From: Python bivittatus
Taxonomy: Eukaryota
Length of the DNA: 18,900 bases
NCBI RefSeq assembly: GCF_000186305.1
Contig: NW_006532411.1
Coordinates: 170,404 to 189,303 of the forward strand
Reading direction: 5' to 3'
Positions 496 to 17,045 of the stretch are shown one piece after another (the stretch's first letter is position 1; each line of letters begins with the position of its first letter). A model generated the notes under the pieces. The model made no database searches and was not told where the DNA came from. It saw only the letters and a program-made list of their open reading frames with translations. The position numbers were made by a program, and so were the translations under genes.

Positions 496-631
496 CTTAT
501 GGAAATCATCAAAGGTGACAGCAGCCACAGCTCCCCGAATGCGTGAGGCCAATGTCTTACAGGCATCACCTATAAAATCTGGGACACAGAATAGGCGGGT
601 TGCTTCAGCCACTGAAGGAATCTCAAAGTGC
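496..631 (-). CDS. MVP: MVP coding exon, 11th in window; continues into an intron towards coordinate 1. Encodes (W)[45 protein letters not shown]
   Basis: Minus-strand ORF 466..681 contains this peptide, colinear with human MVP ...[52 protein letters not shown]. Acceptor ttttcccatcag|G at 632-633 and donor AAG|gtgagc at 494-495 (phase 1 in, phase 0 out). Confidence 0.85.
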
Positions 632-1424
632 CTGATGGGAAAACAGATCCATACACAGTTGCCAAGAAAACCTGAAAACATGACAGTGATTTTAAGTCAA
701 ACCTTCAGAGCTCTGCCTACCTCGTATCTTGGAAGCATTATCTTCCAAGTGTAGTGGGTCACAAACATCTTGCAGCCTCTTAAACTTGGATTAAGGAAAC
801 CATACTTTGCTTAACAGTTAGCATGACATGAACCAGACCATTATGACTTTACAAACCACAATTAAAATCAAACATAACTTAGTGTGATGTATCCGTCCAG
901 ACGATATTTAAATATTCTCAAAGCAGAGGTTTAAATAGCTGATTAAGAAAATCAGAATGGAGAATTAAGGCAATTAAATATATTTGATAAAGCAGCCATA
1001 TCATATGGCATACTGAGGATTAGATCATGTTTAATAATGAAAGGAACTTTAAGATCTAGTTGAAATATATTAGGGATAATTAAAATAGCTAGATGGCCTC
1101 TTATGACTTTCAGTTGAAAATTAAGCTTCTGACTCAAGTGTGTATTTTTAAAGTCACCGAAGGTTTGTAACTATTGTACAGATATTGCTAGGTGGGAACA
1201 ACAGATTTTATATCCCTTGGTAGAACTGTTTGAAGACTAAGTCACGTTACAAGTTTTTTTTTCTTTTAATATACATACTTAGCATTTTCTTCTGTTTCAA
1301 GGTAAGGAATATTATGCAAAGTGCAAAAATAGTGCAACGAATAGTGAGCACAACACAGATAGAAGGAAACCTAAATAAAATTAGTACTGTTGTTACTGTT
1401 TGTTGACTATTAGTTTGCTGACTT

Positions 1425-1888
1425 ATATATTTATTTATGGAATGTATTAGCTGCCCCAATCTGTTATGACTCTGGGCAACTTACAAAATACAATGATAAA
1501 AATACTACAGAAACACACAAAACCATCAAAAAATCTGGAAAAAACCCAATAATTATTAAAAGACCATAACACCATACAAAGGGTCCATCCCTTCATTTTA
1601 ACCAAGGCCTGGGCCCAGAGCCAGGTCTTAAGGATTTGTTTAAATAGGACCAGGGTGGGGCCATGCAAATTTTGGGAGGATGGTGCTCCAGAGGGGAGGT
1701 GCCATGTCAGAGAAGGACCACTTCCCGAGTCCCATCAAGTGACATTGTTCAAATCAGTATTTTTCAAACTTGGCAATTTTAAGATGTATGGACTTCAACT
1801 CCCAGAATTCCCCAGCCAGCATGCTGGCTGAGGAATCCTGGGAGGTGAAGTCCACACATCTTAAAGTTGCCAAGTTTGAAAAACACTG
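1425..1888 (+). mobile_element. Composite SINE-like element of about 460 bp: body 1425-1754, core module 1755-1820, then an inverted copy of the core 1824-1888 forming a near-perfect palindrome
   Basis: The body shares blocks with 4865-5223 (tttatttatGGAATgt..tgactctggg..ttacaaaa..aat..aaaa / agccaggtctt). The core cagtatttttcaaacttggcaattttaagatgtatggacttcaactcccagaattccccagccagc is followed by atg and then its reverse complement. Confidence 0.7.
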
Positions 1889-2469
1889 GTTTAAATTGAT
1901 GGAACCCAGAGCACACCAACTCAGTCAGACTGTGTGGGACAGGAAGAACCTACAGGGAACAAGCAGTTCTCAGACAACCAGGTCCTCTTTCAAAGAAGCA
2001 GTCAAGAGAACCAAGACAAACCTACTTATAGATTAGGCAATATTGCTAAACAAGGGAAAAAGAAAAGAAATACGCTGTTTGAAAGTAAAGCGCTGTAAAG
2101 CCAACTTGCCTTCACAGAAGGCAGCTGGAGTTAAGAGTTCAGAGCAAAACGGAAGGTGAAATGAAAGATAACCTTTTATTGCAGTTTCTCTCAATCAAAG
2201 GCAAAGACAGTTGGGATTGGAATTTTTAAAAAGGGCCTTTTTTTAAGGTATATTTTAATCCATTTGTGAATATGACAAGATTTCTCCCAATCTAGAACTC
2301 CTCAAAATTTGCTGTGCTATACATCTGGCTGTGCATCCAGTGCATCTGGATGGCCCTGAAGACGGTGGCTCCAGCTCCCAGCCTTTCAAATACGATTTGG
2401 ATCCCCAGCTTTTTCCCATCCCAATGATGAATCTCTTGGCTTTCAACCCATCAGTTTTCCTTCACTCAC

Positions 2470-2667
2470 CAGTTATAGGCCAGTTGGAGCTGCAGACGAG
2501 CATGATCAGCTGTTTCAATAGTGATGATGTCAGTGCAGAAGTCTGGCCCCAGGAGGAGGCACAGAGAACGACGCATGTGGGGGCGCTTGGGTCGGCCCCC
2601 TGAGAGACTCAGGACCGTGAATTGCTCATCTGGACCCAGAAGCACAAGTTCTGGTCCAAAAACCACC
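2470..2667 (-). CDS. MVP: MVP coding exon: (R)[65 protein letters not shown](W)
   Basis: Minus ORF 2466..2666 matches human [66 protein letters not shown]. Acceptor ctccttcccccag|G at 2668-2669. Donor AACTG|gtgagt with gt at 2468-2469; the split codon TG+G restores Trp. Confidence 0.88.
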
Positions 2668-3335
2668 CTGGGGGAAGGAGAAGAAGATCAAATTAAATCA
2701 TGGAGGTTCCAAAGAGCACTGGATATAACGTGGCATGAACCAGTGGCACCCTTCTTGAAGGCCGAGATTCTTTTGCAATGCTTATTTTCATGTTTTATGT
2801 CTCATTTATTAAAGGACTCATTCTCTGTGAATATCAAGTTTCCTTCTCACCAGTAGATTAAATTGGATTGTTTCTGATTCATGGGGACTATTCTCAGGAA
2901 TCCGTTCTCATTTTAGTTAATATTTATATTAACTTCATAGCAGCATTAATTCTTTTAGAGAAGGATAGTGCTAATTTAGTATAATGTAGGGGGAAAAGGG
3001 AGAGATCAGAGGCCTACTAATTAAAACATATCCACTTCTCAGCCACACTGAACAGGAAGAAACACAAAAGGGTGGACTTGTGAAGAGAAAATATTTCATT
3101 AAAGATATGGCAGTCCTTTATTAAGCCTTTTCAAAGGACTGCCATTCCTTTAATTTTGCCTATTAAAGTTACAAAGCTGGTGGGACAAATGGTATCTTAT
3201 TGAAAAATACTGCCAATAATCAAGTCTGAGGGAAACCCCCGCCCCCAAAGGACTTGCAGTGAAATGTAGTAATGCGGCTATTAATACTGAGTGAAATTAA
3301 CTGGGTGATCTAGGCTAGTCCATCACAAAATAAAA

Positions 3336-3336
<1 letters not shown>

Positions 3337-3367
<31 letters not shown>
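3337..3367. repeat. (TG)n microsatellite of about 15 units, intronic
   Basis: Seen directly: tgtgtgtgtg... Confidence 0.95.
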
Positions 3368-3369
<2 letters not shown>

Positions 3370-3819
3370 GCAGGCCAGAGGGGACAAAAGATGGAAAATA
3401 AATGAAAAATACAGTATCAGCAAATGAGAGAGCAGCAATTCTAAAAGTCAACCAAACAACCTACTTTCCCTGAAGTCTCATTTCTGGAACGGGCATGCAT
3501 ATTGCTTATTCCAGAGGGAATTCAAAGTCCCCTCCCTGGACTCCACTTCAAAGACAAAGAATGACCAGATTACCAAATCTGGGGCTGCAAAATTGCAGGC
3601 AAGAAACTGGATCAGCTTCTCAACAGCAATCAAACCTATTTGTCATGAGGCTTTGAAACGTGCAAAGACCATTTCCTGAGCCAACTGTGAGTGTCAGCAG
3701 TCTTCCAACAAGTTTGGGCAGCAGAGTAGAGTCATCAAGAAGGGACCAAGAAAGCTGATCCTGAAGAATGTGCCATCCTCAAGAGTCTGGCACAGAAGGG
3801 AGTAGACCAATTTTCTCAC

Positions 3820-4058
3820 CTGGATTTACGCTCCTTGTAGTCGTAAACTTGTACAGCTGCATTGTGGGGGACACGATAAGACACAGCGCGTGTCTTATCA
3901 CGGGGCAACCCAATACCCTTTTCAGAGCTATCTTTGGAACGATCAAGAAGAGGATCCCTGTCTGTGGTCAACAAATCCTCCACGTGGGGAGGCAGGTGTT
4001 TCTCCCACAGTTCCTCATCCTGAGACAGCATGTAAGAATGGCCAATGACAGCTCTAAT
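3820..4058 (-). CDS. MVP: MVP coding exon: [79 protein letters not shown](R)
   Basis: Minus ORF 3816..4085 matches human [82 protein letters not shown]. Acceptor cattctcttccag|ATT at 4059-4060. Donor TCCAG|gtgaga with gt at 3818-3819 (phase 2). Confidence 0.88.
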
Positions 4059-4536
4059 CTGGAAGAGAATGAGAAATGGTTGCAAATATATGAATATGTA
4101 GCATCACCCCAAATTTAGTAGAATTTCCTGGGCAATCTTCTTTATTTCAGGAGCATTGCAAAAAACATTACAAAAAGGAAGTCTCTTTATAGTTCTGAAA
4201 GAATAAGATTGTCTCTGTTAGCACTGACTCTATCAAGGTGATATAGAAACCATAAAGCAGTAGCTTTTCTTCAATTAACAAGTGAGATTACAAATGAGAT
4301 TTTGCATAGCGCTTAAGATAATGCTACCCAGCACTGCCTTTCCCCATTGTCAAGACTCTTTTACAATGCTTATTTTCAAGTAATTATGCGGAAGATTCGT
4401 TTCTAATCTTATGTGGAAGATTCCTCTTTGCAGGCGCTGGACCCTTATTACTTGCATTTCAAGCCTAATGGAGATTAATGCTGAATTATTTTTTCTGCAA
4501 ATCAGAAGTAGGCAGAGGCATTATTTGCTTTCTGGC

Positions 4537-4575
4537 TTTTTTTTTTTTTTTTAAGGAGGAGAAGGAGAAGATAAG
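4537..4575. repeat. T16 homopolymer followed by a GGAGAA-type purine repeat
   Basis: ttttttttttttttttaaggaggagaaggagaagataag. Confidence 0.9.
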
Positions 4576-4864
4576 TGCTATTACATTATTTTGAAAAAGT
4601 AACTAGAGCCCACCCATCCTTTGCCCGTATAGGGATACGCAGAAACAAATTTACAATCTTTCAAATGTGCTGAAATAGAAACCATGATGGCATTTATTAA
4701 TGACACATCAGCCTTTTAACACCTCAATAGCTCATACATTTTTCAGGCTTTTGTGTGTGCATTTTTGGGAGTTTTGGGGGGATAAGGGGCACAACACTAC
4801 TCTTTATACCTCAATCCTATCCCTAAAATGGGTCCTGGCCCCATGTAGGCCCCAACCTTTTTTT

Positions 4865-5306
4865 TTAATTTTTATTTATCGAATTTGTCACCACCCATCT
4901 CGCTAAATGACTCTGGGAGGTTTACAAAACAATTAAAATCAATTAAAATTACAAAATTACAATAATAAATAAAAAATAAAAAGATCCAAAATAATTGGCA
5001 ATCGCTCAGGGAGCATCATCGAGGCGCTAACCACCCCCAGGAGTGGGTAGAGTTGTTATACCCCCACGCAAGCTGGCAGAGCCAGGTCTTCCATTTTTAT
5101 TGGAAGGCCAGTAGGACAGGGGCCTGCCGCACCTCTGGGGGGAGAATGAACATGCTGCGCAGACTCTGGTGCTACTCACAAACTGACCAAATTTGTGAAC
5201 TCCAATTCCTCCTCCTCTATAACCAGTGTTTCTCAACTATGCTGGCTGGAGAATTCTGGGAGTTGAAGTCCATACATCTTAAAGCTGCTGAGGTTGAGGA
5301 CCACTG
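4865..5306 (+). mobile_element. Second composite SINE-like element: body 4865-5223, then a truncated direct arm (cagtgtttctcaac, 5224-5237) joined to a full inverted arm (5242-5306)
   Basis: Body homology to 1425-1754. 3' module ctggctggagaattctgggagttgaagtccatacatcttaaagctgctgaggttgaggaccactg. Confidence 0.65.
4905..4985. repeat. A-rich low-complexity tract, the 5' part of the composite SINE
   Basis: aattaaaatcaattaaaattacaaaattacaataataaataaaaaataaaaag. Confidence 0.8.
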
Positions 5307-6087
5307 CCATAAACAGAATAAAAAGTGAATGTATGAAAGAACTAATGAGTAGAAGTAACTCATATTCATCTAAGCTACAGAACTCTTAGGACCCTACCCT
5401 GTCTACAATATGCCACAAATGCCAGATGGTGGAGAAGGAAATGAAGATTATGGAGTACAGAGCAACATCCCCAAGGAACTCAAAGAGAAGTCATATGCCA
5501 AGAACTACCTTGATAATTTTAATGTCATCTATCTAAGCTAGTATTCTAAGTTGCTAACAGCAGCCAATGGGTTACTGCTACCAAAAGTGAGAACCACAAA
5601 AGCAATCTCCCTCCTTTCCATTATTCTTTATTTTACAAATTTGGTAGCTAGCCTGCCCTTTAAAACGTAGAAGTCTACTAGATCTTACATGACAAGCTAA
5701 GGTCACTGAAGTTCTCCTACTGACTTCGTATTTATACTATCCTATACCCATCTCCGTCCTTGCGATACTGGCCAATGCCCAGAGGAAGACGATGCTGGGG
5801 GACGGGACCAAATCCTTGCAAATTGGTTTATTTTGGAAAAGGACTGAAAAAAATAACCAAAGTTGAAGTAGAAAGATATCCTTTTCACCACCACTGTGAT
5901 TTCCTTTTGCAAGCCCACTTTAAGAGCTTTGTCTGAAGAGCAGTTAATAAATAATGAGCCACATTAGAGAACTGCAGTCCTTTTGCTAACATTGACCTCT
6001 AAAAGTCTGCATCCCCAAGGACTGACGTGTTTTAGGCCACATCGTAGAAGCTTCTCCAGTAACCACTGCTGTATCTATTTCACTCAC

Positions 6088-6246
6088 CTTTCCCGTCTTA
6101 ATATCCCGGACATAAATGCCTTCATTTTCAGCCAGAGGAATAGCATGCCGTTGCTCCATCACTTCTACCTCCGCAGGTGGTACGTACTCCAGAGGGCCTC
6201 GAATCAGCCAGCGGTCACCTGGCTTGCGCAGAATGTCCTTGTTGTC
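6088..6246 (-). CDS. MVP: MVP coding exon: [53 protein letters not shown]
   Basis: Manual minus-strand translation matches human [44 protein letters not shown]. Acceptor is a long polypyrimidine tract then cctag|GAC (ag at 6247-6248). Donor AAG|gtgagtg with gt at 6086-6087. 159 nt, phase 0 at both ends. Confidence 0.85.
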
Positions 6247-6345
6247 CTAGGTATGAGGCAAAGTAAGGAGAAGAGACGAAGTGGCGTATCCAGCTACATC
6301 GATCCACCCATCCACCCTGGCCAACAGAGACTCTGGATCTCCTAC

Positions 6346-6471
6346 CTCACTTTTGTCTTCCAAGGGACGAAGTGCACGTAATAAGAGACCATCTTCTTCA
6401 GACAAGACATAAATGTCCTGGATCCCATCTTCCAACCATTCTCCAGGCTGTAGGAAGAATGATATCTCGCC
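6346..6471 (-). CDS. MVP: MVP coding exon: [42 protein letters not shown]
   Basis: Minus ORF 6247..6507 matches human [39 protein letters not shown]. Acceptor ccttctgcag|GGC (ag at 6472-6473). Donor GAG|gtagga with gt at 6344-6345, a weak match to consensus. Reading on through the ORF loses homology and hits an in-frame TAG at 6249-6247. Confidence 0.8.
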
Positions 6472-6702
6472 CTGCAGAAGGAGGAACAAGAGTTGGGGAA
6501 AACTCAAGAATGATCTTTAGCCATTGGCTTAAAAAAAGGGGGAGCTTAACTTTACTTATTAAACTGTACTGTAATGTGGTCAGTTTGATTTTGGCTTACT
6601 ACAGGAGTGGTATCCTCTGGTTCCAAGCTATTCTAATCACTATCACCAAAAATCATTGGTAAGTTGCCTGCCGTTATGAGCCTGGAAACAGAAACTGTAG
6701 TG

Positions 6703-6817
6703 CAGTGTTTCTCAACCTCAGCAACTTGAAGAGGTGTGGACTTCAACTCCCAGTGGGAGGGGAATTCTGGGAGATGAAGTCCACGCATCTTCAAGTTGCT
6801 GAGGTTGAGAAACACTG
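6703..6817. mobile_element. Fold-back module present as a complete hairpin: direct arm 6703-6753, inverted arm 6763-6817
   Basis: cagtgtttctcaacctcagcaacttgaagaggtgtggacttcaactcccag .. ggaattctgggagatgaagtccacgcatcttcaagttgctgaggttgagaaacactg. The arms are almost exactly complementary. Confidence 0.75.
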
Positions 6818-8174
6818 CTGTAGGGTAAACGCATGTAGACACATACTAATGGGAAAGTTAAGATCTGCCCTAGCCTAGATCCTACAGTCTAGAAAAGGTG
6901 AAGTATAACATCTCCTTCACTAGTCTGACTTTTAGTGACTGTCCCTGTAGCTTTCTTGGCAGCAATACACAACTAGTTTGTCACTGCCTTTTTCTGGGAA
7001 ATTGTTTTGATATCCAAGTCTAGCATACAACTCTGAGATTCCCTAGTAGGACTCCCAGAATTATAATTCAACCCTGTTTAGCTTCTGAGCACAGGCAAGG
7101 TTGGGCAGATGTTGCCACCTAGTATAATACACTCATTAATCAGGACATAGGTGAACAACTGATATTGTCTAAGGGCAGCAGTGTATTATTTTTCTAAACT
7201 GAAGCTTGCCTGTGCAAATGGCTAGGGGGAGCACTACTGGATGCAAAAATGGGACCAGTGTTATAAAATATATAGGATCTTATATATAGGATCTTAAAGT
7301 CCCACCAAACAAATCAGGAACACAACTGATCATTTTTAACTACTTCGTTAGAGCGTATTCAAAATACAGACTCATTCACATGCACATACTATATCTACTC
7401 AAAAAGAAGTAGAGAGAAAGAGATAGAGATGTAAGGGAGTTGGGAGTGCTTCATGGGGAAATCTTAGCATTTAAAAACTATGTCTCCATTGTCTATTCTC
7501 AACTCCTGTCATCTCCCCCTCTAGGCTACTTTGGGTAGACTGAACAGAGGGATGCACGCAGAAAGCACAGAATAAAAAGATGTAAGAATGCATATAGGTA
7601 AAGCTATTATATAAAGAATACAAGCCTATATTTCGTATCAGTTATACTAAGTGATAATTACAATTTATGTGCTAGAACACAGATGGGCAGATTTGAAAAG
7701 TTGGGGAAGAATAACTCAGATGCCTGTTCTTCTGGAAGGCTGCAGAACACTGACCAGTGACATGGTGACCTAATCAGAAAAAGTGTAGTCATTTCTTTTC
7801 AGCCCATGTTTAACACCTTGGAGACAGTTTAAAAGAGAGAAAAGGAACAGGAGGCAAATCACTACTCTCCCATCCTTCAAATTCGCCACGCCATGCCACA
7901 TCAACCCACGCCAAGCCAAAATCCCATTACTGAAATTTTACTGCAACATGGCTGAATTTCAGGGCTGCATGTGGGCCAAAAGTTGCCAGCCAATTTAAAG
8001 CATCCCTAACAAAAAATACAGAAACACACAGTTTGATGCTTTTGGCCAAGAAGGACCATCAATCCACCTCTCAAGGCATTTGCTGCACGCTGTCAGAACT
8101 GTGACTCCTGGCAAGTTAATCTTAATGTTTAGCCCAAATCTGCTTCTCTGCGATCTCTTTCCTGCTGTTTAGAG

Positions 8175-8240
8175 CAGTGTTTCTCAACCTTAGCAACTTT
8201 AAGCTATGTGGACTTCAACTCCCAGAATTCCTCAGCCAGC
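8175..8240 (+). mobile_element. Fold-back module, direct arm only
   Basis: cagtgtttctcaaccttagcaactttaagctatgtggacttcaactcccagaattcctcagccagc. Confidence 0.75.
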
Positions 8241-8435
8241 CATGCTATATAGGATCTAAAAAAATTATTCTACAAGGCTACCTTTCTAATCTGCCCCCCA
8301 ATTGGAGACACAGTCAAGCTGCTCTTCAAGGACAGGCTGCTTTAAGGAGTTCTGTTGTAATCACTAGGGTTGACACACTGAACAGTAACAGTATATCAAT
8401 GGAGTCCTTCACACTACTGAGATAAAGATACATAC

Positions 8436-8675
8436 CTTCATGACCTTCTTCTGCCCAAGTTGAGGTTTACCATCTATTAAACCTACTGGGTCACAAATCA
8501 CACAGTACTGACAACTATTCAAAGTGGTGATGTTGATAATGCCCAGGACTTCCTCGTAAACATCAGGGATGTGGGCTTCAGTGTCTGCCATGGTGACCAA
8601 CCATTCTTCTCCAGTTTTCCTCAGGATACTTTGAAAGTCCTGAAATGTTTTAGTGGCCCGGAGATGCAGGGCTTT
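8436..8675 (-). CDS. MVP: MVP coding exon: [80 protein letters not shown]
   Basis: Minus ORF 8409..8681 matches human [79 protein letters not shown]. Acceptor ttttgttctttgaag|AAA (ag at 8676-8677). Donor AAG|gtatgt with gt at 8434-8435. 240 nt, phase 0 at both ends. Confidence 0.88.
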
Positions 8676-9094
8676 CTTCAAAGAACAAAAGAGGCAGAAA
8701 TATATTAGTGCAAAGGACCCTTTTTATGATTTAACAGTTTTTGTTACTGAACTGACTATTCATACAAGTGACATGTATAGGGTTCAAGCCACACCCCAAA
8801 ATGTTCATTCTGATTATATCCCCTTACACTTCGAAGCAGACTAGAATGCGTGGCAGTAGCAAATTTTAGGCAGAGATGGTTAACATGCAGCCCTTCATAA
8901 GATATTGGTCTACAAATTCTCATCCCTGATCACTGGTGGTATGGGACTAACAGAAATTTAAATCTATCAGCATCTGGCAACAAGCACTGGTTTTTAATAC
9001 AGCCCTCTTCTGCTTGCTCGCTCAAGGAAAAGAGATCTACCAAAGCAGGGAGAGGCCATGGGCATCCATAAAAGAGAGCCAATTTGGTGTAGTA

Positions 9095-9160
9095 CAGTGC
9101 TTTTCAACCTTGGCAACTTTAAGATGTGTGGACTTCAACTCCCAGAATTCCCCAGCCACC
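9095..9160 (+). mobile_element. Fold-back module, direct arm only
   Basis: cagtgcttttcaaccttggcaactttaagatgtgtggacttcaactcccagaattccccagccacc. Confidence 0.75.
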
Positions 9161-9186
9161 ATGTGTATATAAAGGTAGGATAAAAA

Positions 9187-9205
9187 TCTAATAATAATAA
9201 TAATA
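9187..9205. repeat. (AAT)5 microsatellite
   Basis: taataataataataata. Confidence 0.85.
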
Positions 9206-10192
9206 CAAGGTCTTGGGAGGATGTTATCTCCATGTAACCAGAGGTTAATGGCTTTTAAATTTTTATTAAGATATTGAAGGAAAATTGGGGGGTTAAGCTA
9301 AAAGCCCCTAACCCAAACACACTTTCCCAGGGAAACTAAAACTGTCAGCTCAGCCCTAAAACATTCAGAAGGCCAAGGAATGCTGGTAATTTAGAAAAGG
9401 ATTACTGGAAGGCCAGCACAGCTCTGGGAAAGCAAAAGAAAATAACTCCTTAGGAAGAAATTGTGTTCATGAAATACCGCCTCTTTGTTCTTTCAAAACC
9501 CCATTGTGTTTGTAGTCCTGCACCATTGCCCCATAGTTCCGCCAACTGCCTCATTGCTTTCCCTAAACACATAATGTGTTTTATCTGATCAAATACTTGC
9601 TGTTGTCTATACTCAACCAAATACCCTGATGCTGTATCCAATCATACATATTTTCTAAGCCTATAAAATGGGACGAAACCCCCACCCCTCTTTAGGCCTG
9701 TCTTTGCCTCCAGCACCATCAATAAATCTACTTGTGGTTCAATGCAATGTGTCCTGGTCTCCGGTTCAAACAAACTCCTAGGGAATTTCTCCTACAACAT
9801 AAGGCCCCCGAAGTCACTGAGAGAATGTTGTTACTCAGCAGGTATTAGAACCTGGGGCTTCTTTTCCTTGTCTAACCACTCTAGGTTACTATCTTTTATA
9901 GCAGCTCACACAAGCTATAAGGTTGGGCCAGTAAAAATGCTTCCATATATCTATTCAATCCAATTAGCTATAAAAAGGAGCTTTTTTTTGTATTTGTTAG
10001 CCAAGGAACATTCATAAGATGCCTATACATTGGACATCCTACCATAGGTGGAGGAGCTTCAGAATCAAAGGAGAGTTTGCCCTGTGCTTTGCAGCAAAGA
10101 CTTCAAGCACCAAAGCAATGGCAAGTGACATCAATAGCCTCTCTTTCCCATAACCATCACCTACTGCTAGAAGTTGCAAACCTGTCACTTAC

Positions 10193-10287
10193 TTTCTCAG
10201 TCAGAATGATAGCATCAACAATGTCAATGACTTCCTCAAATACACCCGGCAAGTAAGCCCCAACCTTCTTCACCAGCCATTCTTCAC
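10193..10287 (-). CDS. MVP: MVP coding exon: (G)[31 protein letters not shown]
   Basis: Manual minus translation matches human [32 protein letters not shown]. Acceptor tttttccccacag|GT (ag at 10288-10289). Donor AAA|gtaagtgac with gt at 10191-10192. The reading frame is restored with the neighbouring exons. Confidence 0.85.
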
Positions 10288-10349
10288 CTGTGGGGAAAAA
10301 ATGGGAAACTCAAGATATACATAAATACATACATAGATATGTACATACC

Positions 10350-10386
10350 GTGTGTGTGTGGGGGTGTGTGTGGGGGTGTGTGTTTG
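10350..10386. repeat. GT/G-rich imperfect tandem repeat (gtgtgtgtggg)x3 inside the 149-bp MVP intron 10288-10436
   Basis: cgtgtgtgtgtgggggtgtgtgtgggggtgtgtgtttg. On the sense strand it is a CA/C-rich tract. Confidence 0.9.
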
Positions 10387-10436
10387 TAGGAAAGCTGCCC
10401 TCTCATAGGATCATGGGCAGGAACCCAAAAAGATAC

Positions 10437-10568
10437 CTGTCACACGTTTGTTTCCTTCTCTGTCCCTGCATTCCTTCCGTGCCTGAAGTCTTATGGCTTG
10501 GTTGGGACGAATGGTGGTGGCCAGGATAGTCTCCACAACTTCAACCTCTTTTTGTGGGATGTAGGTGC
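10437..10568 (-). CDS. MVP: MVP coding exon: (G)[43 protein letters not shown](G)
   Basis: Minus ORF 10411..10668 matches human [45 protein letters not shown]. Acceptor ctttccag|GC (ag at 10569-10570). Donor ACAG|gtatct with gt at 10435-10436. Confidence 0.88.
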
Positions 10569-11311
10569 CTGGAAAGGACAATGGTTTATTACACGAGCTA
10601 GCTAGGCCCCAACCCATATATGATAGGGGCGGGGAAAGAGTGGTCTGCTTCTGACTTGGCCAAGTCAAGACAATGCCTAGGAAGAAAGGAGATGGAAGCT
10701 ATTGTTCCTGGTTCCATGCATAGAAGGGAGGTCCTTGTAAAATATGGTAAGGTATTTAGGGGAAAAAATCAAATGGATCCTATTTTCATTTTAACCAGTA
10801 CAATTATTTACTTAAAACATATTCCTAAGAGCTTTATCAATGTTTTAATTTTTACCATTAGCATTTCCTGAGCCAATAATTTCAATGGAGATAAAAAATA
10901 GAGAAAAAAATTACATTCATATGGGATGCCATGAGAAAAAAGGGGAGAGTTTAAAGGAATATTTTGGCCCTAGGAGTCCTGAAAAACAATTGGGTCTGAC
11001 TCATTTTTGCCTACTTGACTGGCAACAGATTAGTGGAATCTCAGGATTCCTCACATTTCCTAATATCTGTTTGTTTCAACTGAGGATATCAGGAGCGAAG
11101 CCATAATCTTCTACATAGATCTGCATGTGCCCTCCAGGAATGTGGAACCTATGGCCCTCCACATTTGGCTGAAGTAGTGCACTCAGGCTTTCTCACCATT
11201 GGGTCTGCTGGTTGGGGCCATTGGGAACTGTACTTCAGCCACATCTGGAGGACCACACATCTCCCCTCTCTGCTGAAAGCAAAGTTTCCTTCCTTGACAA
11301 TTGTCACTTAC

Positions 11312-11435
11312 CAGGTCCTTCAAACAACCATTCATCTCCAGCAACATATTTGCCCCCCTGGTCATCCTCAAAGTCCAACAGGGCTTTCAGATGGAGGGCG
11401 GTGTTAGCCAAGACAATTTGTAAAGGTGTAACATC
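11312..11435 (-). CDS. MVP: MVP coding exon: [41 protein letters not shown](G)
   Basis: Manual minus translation matches human [42 protein letters not shown]. Acceptor tctag|GAT (ag at 11436-11437). Donor CCTG|gtaagtgac with gt at 11310-11311 (phase 1). Confidence 0.85.
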
Positions 11436-11945
11436 CTAGAGAAACAGATGAACAAAGGGGCTATGGTAACAAAAGCAATGCCAGGGACTATTCTGTAGTG
11501 TCAAGTCTTGCGAGGCTGGCAAACTCAGGAAACAGGAACCATTTGGATTTCTGGAAAGATCTTTATTAGTAGTAAAGTAAATTGAATACATCCAAAAAAT
11601 TGAATAAAATTGAATTGAATAAACAAATATAGAATCTTGAAAACTTACCAAAGTAATTCTCCAGCACAACTTATACCTAGTATAATTAAGGTGAGATTAC
11701 CCTGAGTCTCTTTCTCATACTTCCCTCCTCCCCTGAACTCAAGAATCACTTCTGAAATGTCTCTGTCTCCTCCCTTACCTGTCATTTTACCTCCTCTGTG
11801 TTCTCACGTTCCCTTAGGCATTCCATCACATGTAGAAAATTACAGCATGGGATTCATACATTCTCCCACCCTTGCTACAAGAGGTCTCCAACTGATTACT
11901 CATTGTGGGCCATTTGAGGAGAAGAGAAATTAATACACCTCCTAC

Positions 11946-12141
11946 CTGTTTTAGTTCCTCTCCTGGATATAAAGGGAAAGGGTCCTGAGCCATTCTGATC
12001 TCCAAGTCAGCATGCGCAAGCCGGACCTGCCCCAAAGCATCAAGTTGGACTGCCCCATCTGTTCCATGAACCACTGGATTGAGGATGATACAGTAATGTC
12101 GTGGCGAAACCATCACCATCTTCTTTGGGGCTAATATGATC
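11946..12141 (-). CDS. MVP: MVP coding exon: (R)[65 protein letters not shown]
   Basis: Minus ORF 11826..12305 matches human [66 protein letters not shown]. Acceptor ctacttcag|G (ag at 12142-12143) completes the AG|G Arg codon from the previous exon. Donor CAG|gtagga with gt at 11944-11945. Confidence 0.88.
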
Positions 12142-13240
12142 CTGAAGTAGGAAAGAAGTGTGGTGATGGTGGTGGAAATGCAAAAGGAGAAATAAGATCT
12201 TGGGCTTCTAGGCTCCTGGTTAGAGATGACCTTCAGCGTGACTTCCTCAAGTTCAGGCATGCTTCTTATTTGACCTAAGTTTTGCAAAACATTGCAGAGT
12301 GACACTCTTGAGAGATGTTTGCTAAGTTCAGGCTAGGACTTGGAGTGGGCTACTTTTGGGGGGCAGTTAATGCTTTTGGAGGGGCATGGTGGATGCAGCC
12401 ATGCAATGTGCATGAGGCAGAGAAGGATCTATTCCAATTTTCTGGGAAGACATGGTGATTCTTCTTAATTCCTTTATCTACTTGAAGCCTGCTTTAGATT
12501 TATACTTCACTATTTGTCTGTTTCTCATCTCAAAACAGTGGGAAACCAAAATTCAACTCTGTCATTAGAGGAGACTTCAGAACTTGCAAAAATAGCTTTC
12601 AAAGGTTCAGAAAGTCCTGAAGCTGCTCTTTGCTCATCCTGGGCAAAGGTTACAGGTGTTATTCAAACCGCCAATGTGACTGTACAGAAAGTGCCACAAG
12701 GGTGGCAGAAAACCAGAAGAAAGTCAAGGGATCCAATCAAAGCACAAAGGTGAGCATTTGAGGGAGGAGAAAAGAGAAAGGTAAAGAAACACTCCCTCAA
12801 AGCAGCCACGCAAGCGATCCCCATCCAAAACTTAGCTTGGGGCTCACCCAAGGAAGCACCTCCTGTTACTGGTTCAAAGGCCTCGTAACAAATACTGTAC
12901 TCAGAGTATGCAAAGAGCAGAGTTTCTTCACCCCAGCCCTGAAGAAAGCAGGGAAGACGTGGGCCCCTGCTTCCTCCTCCTGCAGGTTAACGCCTGGGCT
13001 CAGCAGGAAGACTGAGCGGCCGCTCCCGTGGGGGAAGCTTGGGAGAAAAGCAAAAGGAGCTGGTTCTCCTTATGCAAACAGAAAATGTCTTTCTATTTTG
13101 TTGCAAAACTCTGGGCCAATCGGAGCGGTCTTCCAGGCCCCAGCCAGGCGACCATTCCGCCAGGGAAGCGAGAGACGCGAAACTTCGCCCGGCGGTTACC
13201 GTGTTTTCCTGGTTACGGTCCTCTTTCTGACGTGACTCAC

Positions 13241-13362
13241 CTCTCATTATCCTGGCGGATGTAGGTCTTGGGCCCCGTTTCCACGCGGGTGACGTTGGAG
13301 TTCTGATCCAAGACATGGATGTAGTGGTAGGGAGGGATCCGGATAATTGACTCATTCGCCAT
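13241..13362 (-). CDS. MVP: MVP first coding exon with initiator [43 protein letters not shown](R)
   Basis: Minus-strand ATG at 13362-13360 in a good Kozak context (gacaacATGG). The translation is nearly identical to the human MVP N-terminus [42 protein letters not shown]. Donor GAGAG|gtgagtcac with gt at 13239-13240 (phase 2). Confidence 0.88.
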
Positions 13363-13366
13363 GTTG

Positions 13367-13583
13367 TCTGCCAAGCAGCGGTGCAAAGGAAGAGCAATCG
13401 TATTTTAGAAAAATGCCAGAAAATATCACGGCAGGGCTGCCCGCTGAGTCATCCCCCTCTTTGCTTTACCCAGGGAGGCTTTTAGAGAAGCCTGCAATCT
13501 CTCTCACATCCGCCAGCCCGTCAGGGCGCTTAATCCTTCAAGAACGCAGCTTGGCTTTTAACTCAGCAACCCACACCCTTACG
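13367..13583 (-). other. MVP: Hypothetical small intron (13372..13582) separating a non-coding exon 1 from the ATG-containing exon
   Basis: On the minus strand: cgcttcacc|gtaagggtg (donor gt at 13581-13582) and a pyrimidine-rich run then ttggcag|ACAACATGG (acceptor ag at 13368-13369) just upstream of the start codon. Sequence-only inference. Confidence 0.25.
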
Positions 13584-14889
13584 GTGAAGCGACACACCCG
13601 CTCCGTAAAATCATGTTCCCCTGGCAATTGCGGAGAAGCCTAGCTCGGCGTGCAACGACCGTCGCCGAATCTGGCTGTCAAGATTTGCTTTGCTGGGTGA
13701 AAAAGAAACCCACACAAACATTCGAGGTTTTGCACGTGCTGGCCGAGAGAGATCCACACTAACACCCTCGTTCCTCAAAGGCTGAGCCTTGGTGGGAAAG
13801 TCGATTTCACTCACTCATTTAGAATTAACGATTGTACGTGTCAGCGCATAATGCTGCACTTTGGGAAACTTCTTAGCTCAAAGATGGATCGGTTAAAAAA
13901 AAAAGTATTGCAAAGGAAAGTTTTTATAGTGACAGAGGGAAGGGGGGCTATCAAATGCATGGCCCACGCCGACGTGGAACAGTGCATACTGGGGAGACAA
14001 GGGTAAAGCCGATGAGCTAAACTTACCAGGCGGAGTTGCTTTCTGGAGCTTCGGTGACAGTAGACTGGGACTTTCTCTAATACATTTATTTCCTGGTTTA
14101 GAGGAGGAGCAAACTGAAGCGGGTCAGAAAAATGTTAAAGGAGAAGCAGATTTCAGATGTAGTAGTCATTCAGAGTTTTGCAGCCAAATATAATAGCCCT
14201 GCCAAAGTACTGTAGGCTATATAGGTTCAAGGAGGGTTCTCATAGGATCGGGAGAATGCTTGAGAACACAAGAGACTTCTCCACAAGCTTGGTGAGGGGC
14301 AATAAGATGCTTTCCCCCCTACACTTTTTGGGAGATTTCACAAGTATCAGATAGAATGGAGTGAAAATAACATGGCCATCTAACTCATGACTCTGCTGAG
14401 TTACGCATAGCAGGCTGAACCAGGAAAATCGATCATAAAGAATGGGGATTGGGAAGATCCTTTACAGTAATGTATGATGGAGAAAGCAAAGGAGAGCATT
14501 GCTCTGGGGACCTTTCCTGAGCAGGAGGAAGGAAATTATTTATGGGATTATTCAGAATAATTGACAGACTGTCTACAGCCAAGCTAAAAATTGGGATAAT
14601 AAGTCTGGTAGCGCCCTTTCCAACTAGCAAAGTATAAGCTTTTGTGAGCTGCAACTCGCTTCCTAAGGTGCATAGAGTGGCTAGACTAATACAGAATTTA
14701 AATTGGGATAAGGTGGGGGGAAAGGGAGAGGAAGACAGGTTGGTTATGCAGGTTACATGAGAGAGAGATTAAAGGACCCTATTAATTAACTATTTTAATG
14801 GGTTAAAAACCCATTGTCTCATAAGAGACCTTCTGAGATTGCCTGAAACCAGTTTCTCACTCAATGATGCTGTCAAACTCCTCCTTTTC

Positions 14890-15065
14890 CAAAACAGGCA
14901 CTTTGAGGTCTGCTGCGGAGTGTCCTGGCAGATAGAAACACTTTGATCCTACCCTGACAGAGTTAGTGGCACTAAGTCACCCAGTGAGCCTCCATGGTTG
15001 AGGGTGGACTTGAATCTGGGGTTCTTCAGTCAGTCCAACCCCTCAGCCATTACAACACACAGGCT
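14890..15065 (-). mobile_element. tRNA-derived, MIR-like SINE copy in minus orientation
   Basis: Minus strand reads ..ggttggactgactgaagaaccccagattcaagtccaccctcaacc.. (tRNA-like T-arm) followed by ctcactgggtgacttagtgccactaactctgtcagggtagga, a MIR-like core similar to 'tgaccttgggcaagtcact'. Confidence 0.45.
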
Positions 15066-15131
15066 CTATTTTTAAAAGTTGTTAGAAACTGCTAGCTGAC
15101 CAGGAAACAGACTTCTGCATTACATATAGAT

Positions 15132-15232
15132 CAGTGTTTCTCAACCTTGGCAACTTTGGTGGACATGCTGGCTGGGGAATTCTGGGAGGTGAAGTCCACA
15201 CATCTTAAAGTTGCCATAGTTGAAAAACATTG
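15132..15232. mobile_element. Fold-back module: truncated direct arm 15132-15167 joined to a full inverted arm 15168-15232
   Basis: cagtgtttctcaaccttggcaactttggtggacatg|ctggctggggaattctgggaggtgaagtccacacatcttaaagttgccatagttgaaaaacattg. Confidence 0.7.
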
Positions 15233-16013
15233 GTTTAATTCAATCTATGGCTAGATTTCTATGATATAGTGAGCCATAATGTGGTGGTGCTTTGGTTTAG
15301 CATATGCCATGACCCCCCCCACTGTGGTCTGTAGACCACAATGATTTGTACACCATCCAACATCGCCAGCCAGCACAGCCGAGAGTAAGGGATCCTGGGA
15401 ATTGAGTTCCGCAACAGCTGAAAGATTGCACATCACACACCTGTGCTGTATGGCTTTGGGCTAGATGATTCCAAGCAATTACTCTAGTTAATTCAGTAAA
15501 TTATAGTTAAGTAAACCAAGGCTTGGCATGATGTATGAATCCAGCCTATGTCTCAGGAATAGAATATATCCTCTGCACACTTAGAAACTCCAGTTTCAAT
15601 AATTAGCTTAGTTGATTGAAAGGTGTCATTTAATACAGTTGAGAGAAAAAAAGTTGAAACTTCAGAAAGTGATAGCAAATATCCAGAATATTCTGGATAT
15701 AAGTGGGCCTGAAGCTTGTGAAAGCTGTGTTAAAATTCTGCCTGGTTATGGATTCTGAAAGGTATCCAAATCCTGCTCAAAACAAACATGTTGTTAACAA
15801 GCTTCCCTTCCTTGGGCATGTCAAAACTCCATTTTAGCTGCTGTATGAAAAAAGAAAATGAGACAGCTGATCCTTTTTTCCATCATCAGTTTCCATGCAG
15901 GAAGAATTTGGCCCAGCTGTTATAAACATATCAGGAAAACAGTTAACTACTCTACTGCCAAGGTAGACCAGATCAGGAAACTGACTCTACAGGAAGACTA
16001 GAACTCTACTTTA

Positions 16014-16325
16014 TTGATATAGGCTACAGCAGTGTTTCTCAACCTTGGCAACTTTAAGATGTGTGGGCTTCAACTCCCAGAATTCCCCAGCCAGCCTAGC
16101 TCAACACAGCTTTCACAAGCTTCAGGCCCACTTATATCCAGAATATTCTGGATATAAGTGGGCCTGAAGCTTGTGAAAGCTGTGTATTGATATAGGCTAC
16201 AGCAGTGTTTCTCAACCTTGGCAACTTTAAGATGTGTGGGCTTCAACTCCCAGAATTCCCCAGCCAGCCTAGCTCTGGGAGTTGAAGTCTACACATCCTA
16301 AAGTTGCCAAGGTTGAGAAGCTCTG
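16014..16325. repeat. Complex rearranged block: 89-bp direct repeat DR1 (16014-16102, includes a module direct arm); perfect 82-bp palindrome (16104-16185); DR2 (16187-16275); module inverted arm (16276-16325)
   Basis: ttgatataggctacagcagtgtttctcaacc...ccagccagcctagctc occurs twice. Between the two copies lies acacagctttcacaagcttcaggcccacttatatccagaatattctggatataagtgggcctgaagcttgtgaaagctgtgt, which is exactly self-complementary. Confidence 0.8.
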
Positions 16326-16522
16326 GGCTACAGTAACAGAATCTTATACATCTGCCTCTGTTTTCCCTTCCTTCCTCTTATACCCAGGAATCTGAGGGGA
16401 GCCAGTCTGAGATTCCTTCTCATACTTTCCCACTTCCCCCCTTAATGCACACTTCTTTTGCACCTGTTGTCTTAACAACTTCTGGATGGCTTCTCCAAGG
16501 TCATCTCCATGGCTCCCTATGC

Positions 16523-16612
16523 CAGTGTTTCTCAACCTTGGCAACTGCTGGCTGGTGAATTCTGGGAGTTGAAGTCTACACATCTTAAAGTTGCTGAGGT
16601 TGAAAAACACTG
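16523..16612. mobile_element. Fold-back module: truncated direct arm 16523-16546 joined to a full inverted arm 16547-16612
   Basis: cagtgtttctcaaccttggcaact|gctggctggtgaattctgggagttgaagtctacacatcttaaagttgctgaggttgaaaaacactg. Confidence 0.7.
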
Positions 16613-16694
16613 TCCCACACTAACCTATATTCAGTTGTGTAAGTTGATTACTATTCACATTAAAGAATACTGCTTTGTGGAAGAAGACTGAAGA

Positions 16695-17045
16695 TGGTAT
16701 TGTCCTAGAATCATAGTGTTGGAAAAGACCTAAGAAGTCATCAAGCCCAACCCCCTGCACACTGCAGGATTTGCTACAACATACCCAATAGATGACCATC
16801 CAGCCTCCATCTGAAAACCTCCAGCAAAGAGGAAGAAACCAAGTAACCTATTCCACTGATTGACAGCTCTCACTGTCAAGAAGTTCTTCCTCATATCTAA
16901 TCCGTATCTCTACACCCTTGAAGTTTCATCCCATTAGTTGTAGTCTTACCCTCTGGAGCAAGTGAGAATAAGTCCAAGTGCTCTACAATGTGACAGCCCT
17001 TCAGATATTTGAAGACACCTATCATATCCCCCCCCTCTCTCTTTT
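16695..17045 (+). mobile_element. Interspersed repeat copy (SINE/CR1-associated type, family not named)
   Basis: Starts agaatcatagtgttggaaaagacc..caagcccaaccccctgcac..gatgaccatccagcctccatctgaaaacctccag..ctattccactgattgacagctctcactgtcaagaagttcttcctcat. I recognise this pattern as a recurrent reptile repeat. Recognition is from memory only, with no database check. Confidence 0.4.

Follow-up and report, generated by a model that had tools for sequence, protein, structure and literature searches.

Inside a fold-back transposable element of Python bivittatus, a perfect 82-bp palindrome is set between two identical 91-bp direct repeats. We analyzed this block within an 18,900-nt stretch of the genome ("the window"; assembly GCF_000186305.1, contig NW_006532411.1, positions 170,404 to 189,303), whose own numbering is used throughout. 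All of the inserted bases are templated from nearby sequence, the arrangement is derived relative to that of Liasis olivaceus, also a pythonid, one breakpoint falls at the apex of the hairpin that the element is predicted to form, and the two junctions share 0 and 1 nt. The block is best read as a mutational scar left by a single event in the python lineage, real and in the germline, rather than as a functional element, and we give this reading a probability of roughly 0.55. As such, it matches known classes of mutation, namely tandem duplication at a staggered break and snap-back synthesis of templated filler, and requires no new mechanism.

Structure of the palindrome block

The features of the block, its source, and the element that contains it are listed here in order of position.

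15679 to 15700 (no strand): native 22-bp perfect palindrome ATATCCAGAATATTCTGGATAT, the seed, which becomes the center of the 82-mer
15701 to 15731 (plus strand): source tail of 31 nt, AAGTGGGCCTGAAGCTTGTGAAAGCTGTGTT, which gave rise to the arms through one inverted copy (31 nt) and one direct copy (30 nt)
16012 to 16102 (plus strand): left 91-bp repeat, made up of 18 bp of unique flank, including the target-site duplication of the MITE, and, from the MITE itself, the left arm and loop
16022 to 16029 (plus strand): left 8-bp target-site duplication, GGCTACAG
16030 to 16325 (plus strand): host fold-back MITE with terminal inverted repeats CAGTGTTTCTCAACC..., 123 bp long before the event
16103 (plus strand): lone A separating the left repeat from the palindrome, matching the complement of T15731
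16104 to 16185 (no strand): 82-bp palindrome, composed of the inverted tail, the 22-bp core, and the direct tail
16185 to 16275 (plus strand): right 91-bp repeat, whose first base, T16185, is common with the palindrome
16326 to 16333 (plus strand): right 8-bp target-site duplication, GGCTACAG, flanking the MITE

Repeat detection and exact extension by script establish that positions 16104-16185 are their own reverse complement, with 41-nt arms and no spacer; the bases that flank the 82-mer outward are A and A. The palindrome had been described correctly in an earlier, sequence-only reading of this DNA. That reading had also derived the right arm from about 400 bp upstream, and the copy is indeed exact, although its source widens from 15683-15730 to 15679-15730. 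The direct repeats, given there as 89 bp, are identical as claimed, but exact extension places their start two bases further left, so that 16012-16102 and 16185-16275 agree at 91 of 91 positions. These copies are set apart solely by the 82-bp filler (81 bp plus the shared T), the right one overlapping the palindrome by a single base.

The filler has the composition of a templated insertion, namely copies of nearby DNA that are partly in reverse complement. The left arm and core (16103-16155) match 15679-15731 exactly in inverted orientation (53 nt), and the right arm and core (16134-16185) match 15679-15730 exactly in direct orientation (52 nt). In total, the 173 extra bp resolve fully, at 100% identity, into the reverse complement of 15701-15731, the core, 15701-15730, and a second copy of 16013-16102. 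Every inserted base is thus templated from sequence at most 425 bp away, with the source of the palindrome lying 372-424 bp upstream. The A at 16103 was either templated, as base 31 of the left arm, or added without a template.

Junction microhomology amounts to 0 nt on the left (16102|16103) and to 1 nt, a T, on the right (16185). Both junctions were tested for the microhomology of at least 2 nt expected at switch points in TMEJ or MMBIR, and none was found. The duplication, for its part, has the hallmarks of a small tandem duplication, being exact, shorter than 100 bp, in tandem orientation, and near-blunt at both joins.

In 200 shuffled windows, the longest perfect palindrome had an arm of 7.1 nt on average and of 10 nt at most, and the second-longest palindrome of the actual window is the seed itself, with an arm of 11 nt. 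Three copies of the 30-nt arm tail are present in the window where 0.00 are expected. The palindrome and its copied arms are therefore far beyond chance.

The host element and its relatives

The element that carries the block has the termini CAGTGTTTCTCAACC...GGTTGAGAAACACTG and belongs to a family with nine copies or fragments in the window, whose arms are 81-92% complementary. Target-site duplications are GGCTACAG/GGCTACAG at the host copy and GTTCAAAT/GTTTAAAT and CTGTAGTG/CTGTAGGG (7/8 matches) at two others; at two degraded copies in the window, none was seen. Being part of the 91-bp unit, the left duplication of the host copy recurs at 16195-16202. The sequence-only reading had called the element a fold-back SINE. 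Its fold-back nature stands, but with its terminal inverted repeats and 8-bp target-site duplications it is better described as a putative hAT-like MITE. No autonomous copy related to it is present in the window, and a literature search with the terminal string returned irrelevant matches only.

Removal of the 173 bp restores a 123-bp MITE, which as single-stranded DNA is predicted to fold into a hairpin with an MFE of -48.4 kcal/mol. The left breakpoint, after 16102, follows nt 73 of the restored element, at the boundary of loop and stem, 2 nt beyond the apical loop in the 3' direction. The second breakpoint (16012) is located 18 bp outside of the MITE.

Two internally deleted copies of the MITE, at 15132-15232 and 16524-16612, are present less than 1 kb to either side of the block and have no recognizable target-site duplication. 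Together with the host MITE, they constitute a local cluster of mutually inverted repeats with arms that are 87-91% complementary. Such a cluster could itself favor secondary structure or assembly trouble.

Comparison with other snakes

Outgroup loci were obtained from the MVP (major vault protein) cluster for Liasis olivaceus (Pythonidae; locus L001) and Candoia aspera (Boidae; locus L002). Liasis is collinear with the whole window, with about 18.7 kb aligned at a substitution divergence of 2.97%, and the flanks of the block are collinear on both sides at 96-97% identity. Window positions 14448-16102 correspond to L001 8717-7053 and positions 16185-16916 to L001 7143-6412; in Liasis, these two aligned blocks overlap by exactly 91 bp. 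At the base level, ...CTACTT runs straight into TATTCATATAGG... and ...CCTAGCTC into TGGGAG... in Liasis, which has a single 91-bp unit (L001 7053-7143), no 82-mer, and otherwise undisturbed junctions. The unduplicated state that the sequence-only reading had proposed to seek in a related species is thus present in Liasis, and judged from this alignment the python state is a clean, derived insertion of 173 bp.

The orthologous MITE, the 22-bp seed palindrome (L001 7454-7475), and the source tail, once and at its orthologous position, are all retained in Liasis. Conservation of the seed indicates that it is older than the insertion. Since seed and tail occur once in Liasis and the 82-mer is missing there, copying must have proceeded from the upstream source to the palindrome. 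This supports the direction of the inverted duplication that had been proposed earlier, one seeded by the short palindrome; the accompanying proposal of template switching or hairpin-primed synthesis is, in essence, also the mechanism that we favor. Moreover, the source tail differs from Liasis at two sites, at which both palindrome arms carry the python bases, and a python-specific G is common to both 91-bp copies, so that the python copies agree at 3/3 variable sites. Copying was therefore local, from the python sequence itself.

Among the python copies there is no divergence, with 0 differences in 173 duplicated bp. Set against the 2.97% that separates python from Liasis, this fits the recent origin suggested by the sequence-only reading and, if the event is real, places it within about the youngest 58% of the python branch (95% confidence).

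The whole 2.3-kb segment 15570-17876, with source, MITE, and palindrome site alike, is missing from the Candoia locus (L002 ~9204-9209), which thus provides no second outgroup for polarizing the change. The segment is either a pythonid-specific gain or a deletion in Candoia.

Other differences between the two pythonids involve additional sequence in Liasis. A fold-back MITE of 140 bp, from a related subfamily (CAGTGTTGTCCAAACTTGGCC...; L001 6273-6412), is found only there, with the 8-bp duplication CTCTACAC on both sides, and the corresponding python site (16908-16916) is empty. With a filled site in one species and an empty site in the other, the MITE family must have been still transposing after the split of Python and Liasis. 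Three other Liasis-only segments, of 232, 223, and 199 bp (L001 18058-18289, 12299-12521, and 8717-8915), have python counterparts at 5471-5475, 11015-11027, and 14448-14460 and are bounded by direct repeats, 5-13 bp long, of the python sequence. These look like retroposon/SINE-type insertions in Liasis, or else precise losses in python.

A possible route to the block

The process would have begun with a break, or a stalled nascent end, at the apex of the MITE hairpin, leaving a top-strand 3' end at 16102, and with a discontinuity in the second strand 91 bp to the left (16011|16012). An error-prone repair polymerase may then have extended the 3' end by copying single-stranded DNA from 15731 back to 15679, about 370 nt behind the break, to give the inverted product. 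The new 3' end would consist of the self-complementary 22-mer, which could snap back and prime a second synthesis on the fresh strand, yielding the mirror arm. This product would have been joined at 16012 by 1 nt of microhomology, after which synthesis would have continued. The 91-bp stretch, if kept by both ends through fill-in of complementary 3' overhangs or through upstream re-priming, would as a result be duplicated around the filler.

Snap-back on the native palindrome would explain why the 82-mer is perfect and free of a spacer, and why its arms end within 1 nt of the same source coordinate; this last feature suggests that a short template was copied to its end. Agreement with the source extends over 31 nt in the left arm and 30 nt in the right one, which fits a right arm copied from the left and slightly favors the order of steps given above. 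Three serial template switches at a fork are another way to describe this product, as an extension of the short-range template-switch model, and the order of the steps, the enzymes, the choice of break repair over replicative switching, and an origin in the animal are all deduced from the final structure. Joining looks NHEJ-like or accompanied by non-templated addition, and the filler looks like a snap-back templated insertion. Given that microhomology of at least 2 nt is lacking, the block is not classed as strict TMEJ or MMBIR.

The position of the left breakpoint, just past the loop of a hairpin of -48 kcal/mol, argues for a scar. Several points argue against it. With 0 nt of homology at the left junction, simple priming there would need a non-templated step or a ligation. 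The copied tracts of 52 and 30 nt exceed the usual length of templated inserts made by Pol theta, instability in vivo would be expected of a perfect palindrome of 82 bp, and the python evidence comes from one reference assembly. A more specific proposal, namely that the block is real, young, and possibly polymorphic, arising in one germline event in which a break at the MITE hairpin was repaired by two successive snap-back syntheses from the 22-bp seed, and that the outcome is a de novo perfect hairpin with a 41-bp stem, 2.7 kb upstream of MVP, and a candidate Dicer substrate if transcribed, is in our judgment a long shot; it would match the proposal that new miRNAs can be born from hairpins made by template switching.

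Relation to known mutational processes

Fold-back priming at short inverted repeats underlies models of palindromic amplification in yeast, Tetrahymena, and mammals. As in these models, the python block would have been made by a short natural palindrome at a 3' end that self-primes and mirrors the adjacent sequence. However, the models yield hairpin-capped chromosomes and palindromes of kilobases to megabases, whereas in the python synthesis would have ended after 30 nt and the product would have been re-integrated as a small insertion.

On 3' tails, Pol theta switches back and forth between non-templated extension, copying in cis (snap-back), and copying in trans (Kent et al. 2016, PMC4912351), and structure-forming sequences near breaks can prime templated synthesis in SD-MMEJ (Khodaverdian et al. 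2017, PMC5728401). The python block resembles the products of Pol theta TMEJ and SD-MMEJ in that its filler is copied inverted from the flank of the break and then again from the nascent strand, over several rounds, and in that a structure-forming sequence would serve as primer. It differs in its tracts (52 and 30 nt) and template distance (~370 nt), which are larger than typical, and in that its junctions do not have the microhomology of at least 2 nt that is usual for TMEJ.

The direct repeats have a close parallel in tandem duplications of less than 100 bp, whose origin is traced to fill-in at complementary 3' overhangs and subsequent Ku-dependent, near-blunt joining (Schimmel et al. 2021, PMC8355091). 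Fill-in depends on the 53BP1-Shieldin-CST-Pol alpha-primase axis, and duplications that carry an extra change at the junction are termed "TD+" (PMC8355091). The exact 91-bp duplication with junctions of 0 and 1 nt is alike; the 82-bp templated palindrome between the copies is not. In addition, those duplications were induced with pairs of Cas9 nickases, whereas in the python the nicks are deduced and a natural MITE hairpin would be the source of the break.

In vertebrate genomes, perfect inverted repeats and hairpins can also result from template switching (PMC5453318; PMC8794818). Like the python block, such short-range mutations are detected by comparison of close genomes (PMC5453318; Monttinen and Loytynoja 2022, PMC8794818). 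The four-point model covers a single switch-and-return and explicitly leaves serial switching of the FoSTeS/MMBIR type outside its scope (Loytynoja and Goldman 2017, PMC5453318). The python product, in contrast, needs three switches and a 91-bp duplication and is thus closer to a miniature serial switch of the FoSTeS/MMBIR type.

Alternative explanations

It is quite possible, although we hold it at somewhat below even odds, that the block is an artefact of the draft assembly or of its library and that the animal itself is Liasis-like at this site. In this case, contig ends overlapping by 91 bp in the MITE would have been left unmerged, and the gap between them filled by a fold-back mini-contig or a chimeric read from the region of the 22-bp palindrome. 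The reference is a shotgun assembly of 274,244 contigs with a contig N50 of 10,658 bp that has been called low quality (PMC11838433), and the breakpoints fall within a multi-copy inverted repeat, the kind of sequence at which short-read assemblies fail. Yet the 18.9-kb window has no N, and the 173-bp block is the only python-specific insertion of more than 21 bp in the 18.7-kb alignment with Liasis; thus, there is no pattern of local assembly noise. An artefact predicts the 100% identity of all copies that is observed. Its source, 370-420 bp away, would be at a distance comparable to a paired-end insert, so that mis-recruited gap-filling reads could give the same result, and a 22-bp palindrome would let a de Bruijn walk with k of at most 21 fold back to produce reverse-complemented tail, core, and tail with equal arms. 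The breakpoints, 2 nt past the loop and 18 bp outside of the MITE, would nevertheless be unlike a de Bruijn branch, which should occur at least k-1 nt into a shared arm. Furthermore, extension by overlaps or k-mers needs reads that span the junctions, and because just 0 and 1 nt at the junctions are in common with the flanks, molecules that cross them must have existed. Random ligation would hardly have supplied them: an in vitro chimera was rejected, as three fragments from one 450-bp neighborhood are unlikely to meet in a 1.4-Gb library. The scaffold mis-join considered in the sequence-only reading is contradicted by flanks that are perfectly collinear with Liasis, and any artefact would therefore need to take the form of a local duplication with filler. 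The junctions left no independent trace in searches that are unlikely to reach python genomic reads: exact look-ups of 11 window ORFs, one of which spans the junctions, gave no match in protein and contig collections, a homology search with the junction-spanning 58-aa ORF gave no candidates, and a metagenome scan with a 33-mer of core plus arm gave 0 matches.

The remaining explanations accept the sequence and change its history. If the python state were ancestral, recombination between the 91-bp repeats could have removed 173 bp in Liasis; deletion between perfect repeats would leave exactly the Liasis sequence, and the missing segment in Candoia deprives us of a second outgroup against which to check this. 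However, an origin before the split, at 2.97% divergence, predicts about 5 differences in 173 bp where 0 are seen (P ~0.006), the agreement of the python copies at all three variable sites is contrary to it, and a perfect 82-bp palindrome is unlikely to have persisted unchanged for so long. We consider this loss very improbable. Even less credible is a second palindromic fold-back MITE inserted into the first, with the direct repeats as its target-site duplication. A palindrome between direct repeats does superficially look like an element with terminal inverted repeats and a duplicated target, but the 82-mer is not dispersed: its arm occurs nowhere in the python window but at the source and in the palindrome, a single time (at the orthologous source) in Liasis, and not at all in the Candoia locus. 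The arms are instead adjacent unique sequence, including two python-specific substitutions, as local copying would produce, and we know of no transposase family that makes a 91-bp target duplication. On these sequence grounds, insertion of one MITE into another appears effectively refuted.

Significance

Whether the block is real or an artefact, there is no sign of function at it, nor of a new kind of system. If real, it is a natural case, polarized by an outgroup, in which a hairpin transposon and a short native palindrome gave rise to a long palindrome and a tandem duplication in one repair event. With each base traceable to its template, it would be useful in teaching and for testing software that detects template switches. 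The palindrome site upstream of MVP would then also be likely to be fragile and cruciform-prone and could be polymorphic in this invasive species, for which population resequencing data exist. If the block is instead an artefact, it exposes a failure mode of short-read drafts at fold-back repeats, in which contig ends are duplicated and a palindrome-seeded fold-back fills the space between them; comparative scans for template switches must then filter such structures.

Genomic context

The block is located 2.65-2.96 kb upstream of the ATG of MVP, the 5' half of which spans window positions 496-13362 on the minus strand. A minus-strand ORF (13237-13386) reads as the MVP N-terminus. Exons were mapped by tblastn with squamate MVP, and eleven minus-strand exons were joined into a 589-aa model that is 100% identical to P. 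bivittatus MVP (XP_007424389.1):

13362-13243 (minus strand): MVP exon 1, the first coding exon, 100% identical to XP_007424389.1
12143-11946, ~11432-11310, 10572-10435, 10291-10193, and 8678-8436 (minus strand): MVP exons 2 to 6
6471-~6346, 6246-~6085, 4055-3819, 2666-2469, and 630-496 (minus strand): MVP exons 7 to 11

A 389-aa MVP query listed matches of at most 681 aa and missed the full-length MVPs (~845-890 aa), which were found with the 589-aa query. On the MVP side of the palindrome block there is a CpG-island-like stretch (~13000-14000; CpG o/e 0.75-0.87) that we read as the probable MVP promoter region; elsewhere the DNA has the CpG depletion of a vertebrate genome. Nothing in the window reached the gathering thresholds of Rfam, and TRF detected microsatellites only. 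Just downstream of the block, minus-strand ORF fragments at 16730-17025 (...FLTVRAVNQWNRL... and ...KYLKGCHIVE...LFSLAPEGKTTTNGMKLQ...) resemble the C-terminal end of the ORF2 of a CR1-type LINE, and are probably a degraded LINE tail.
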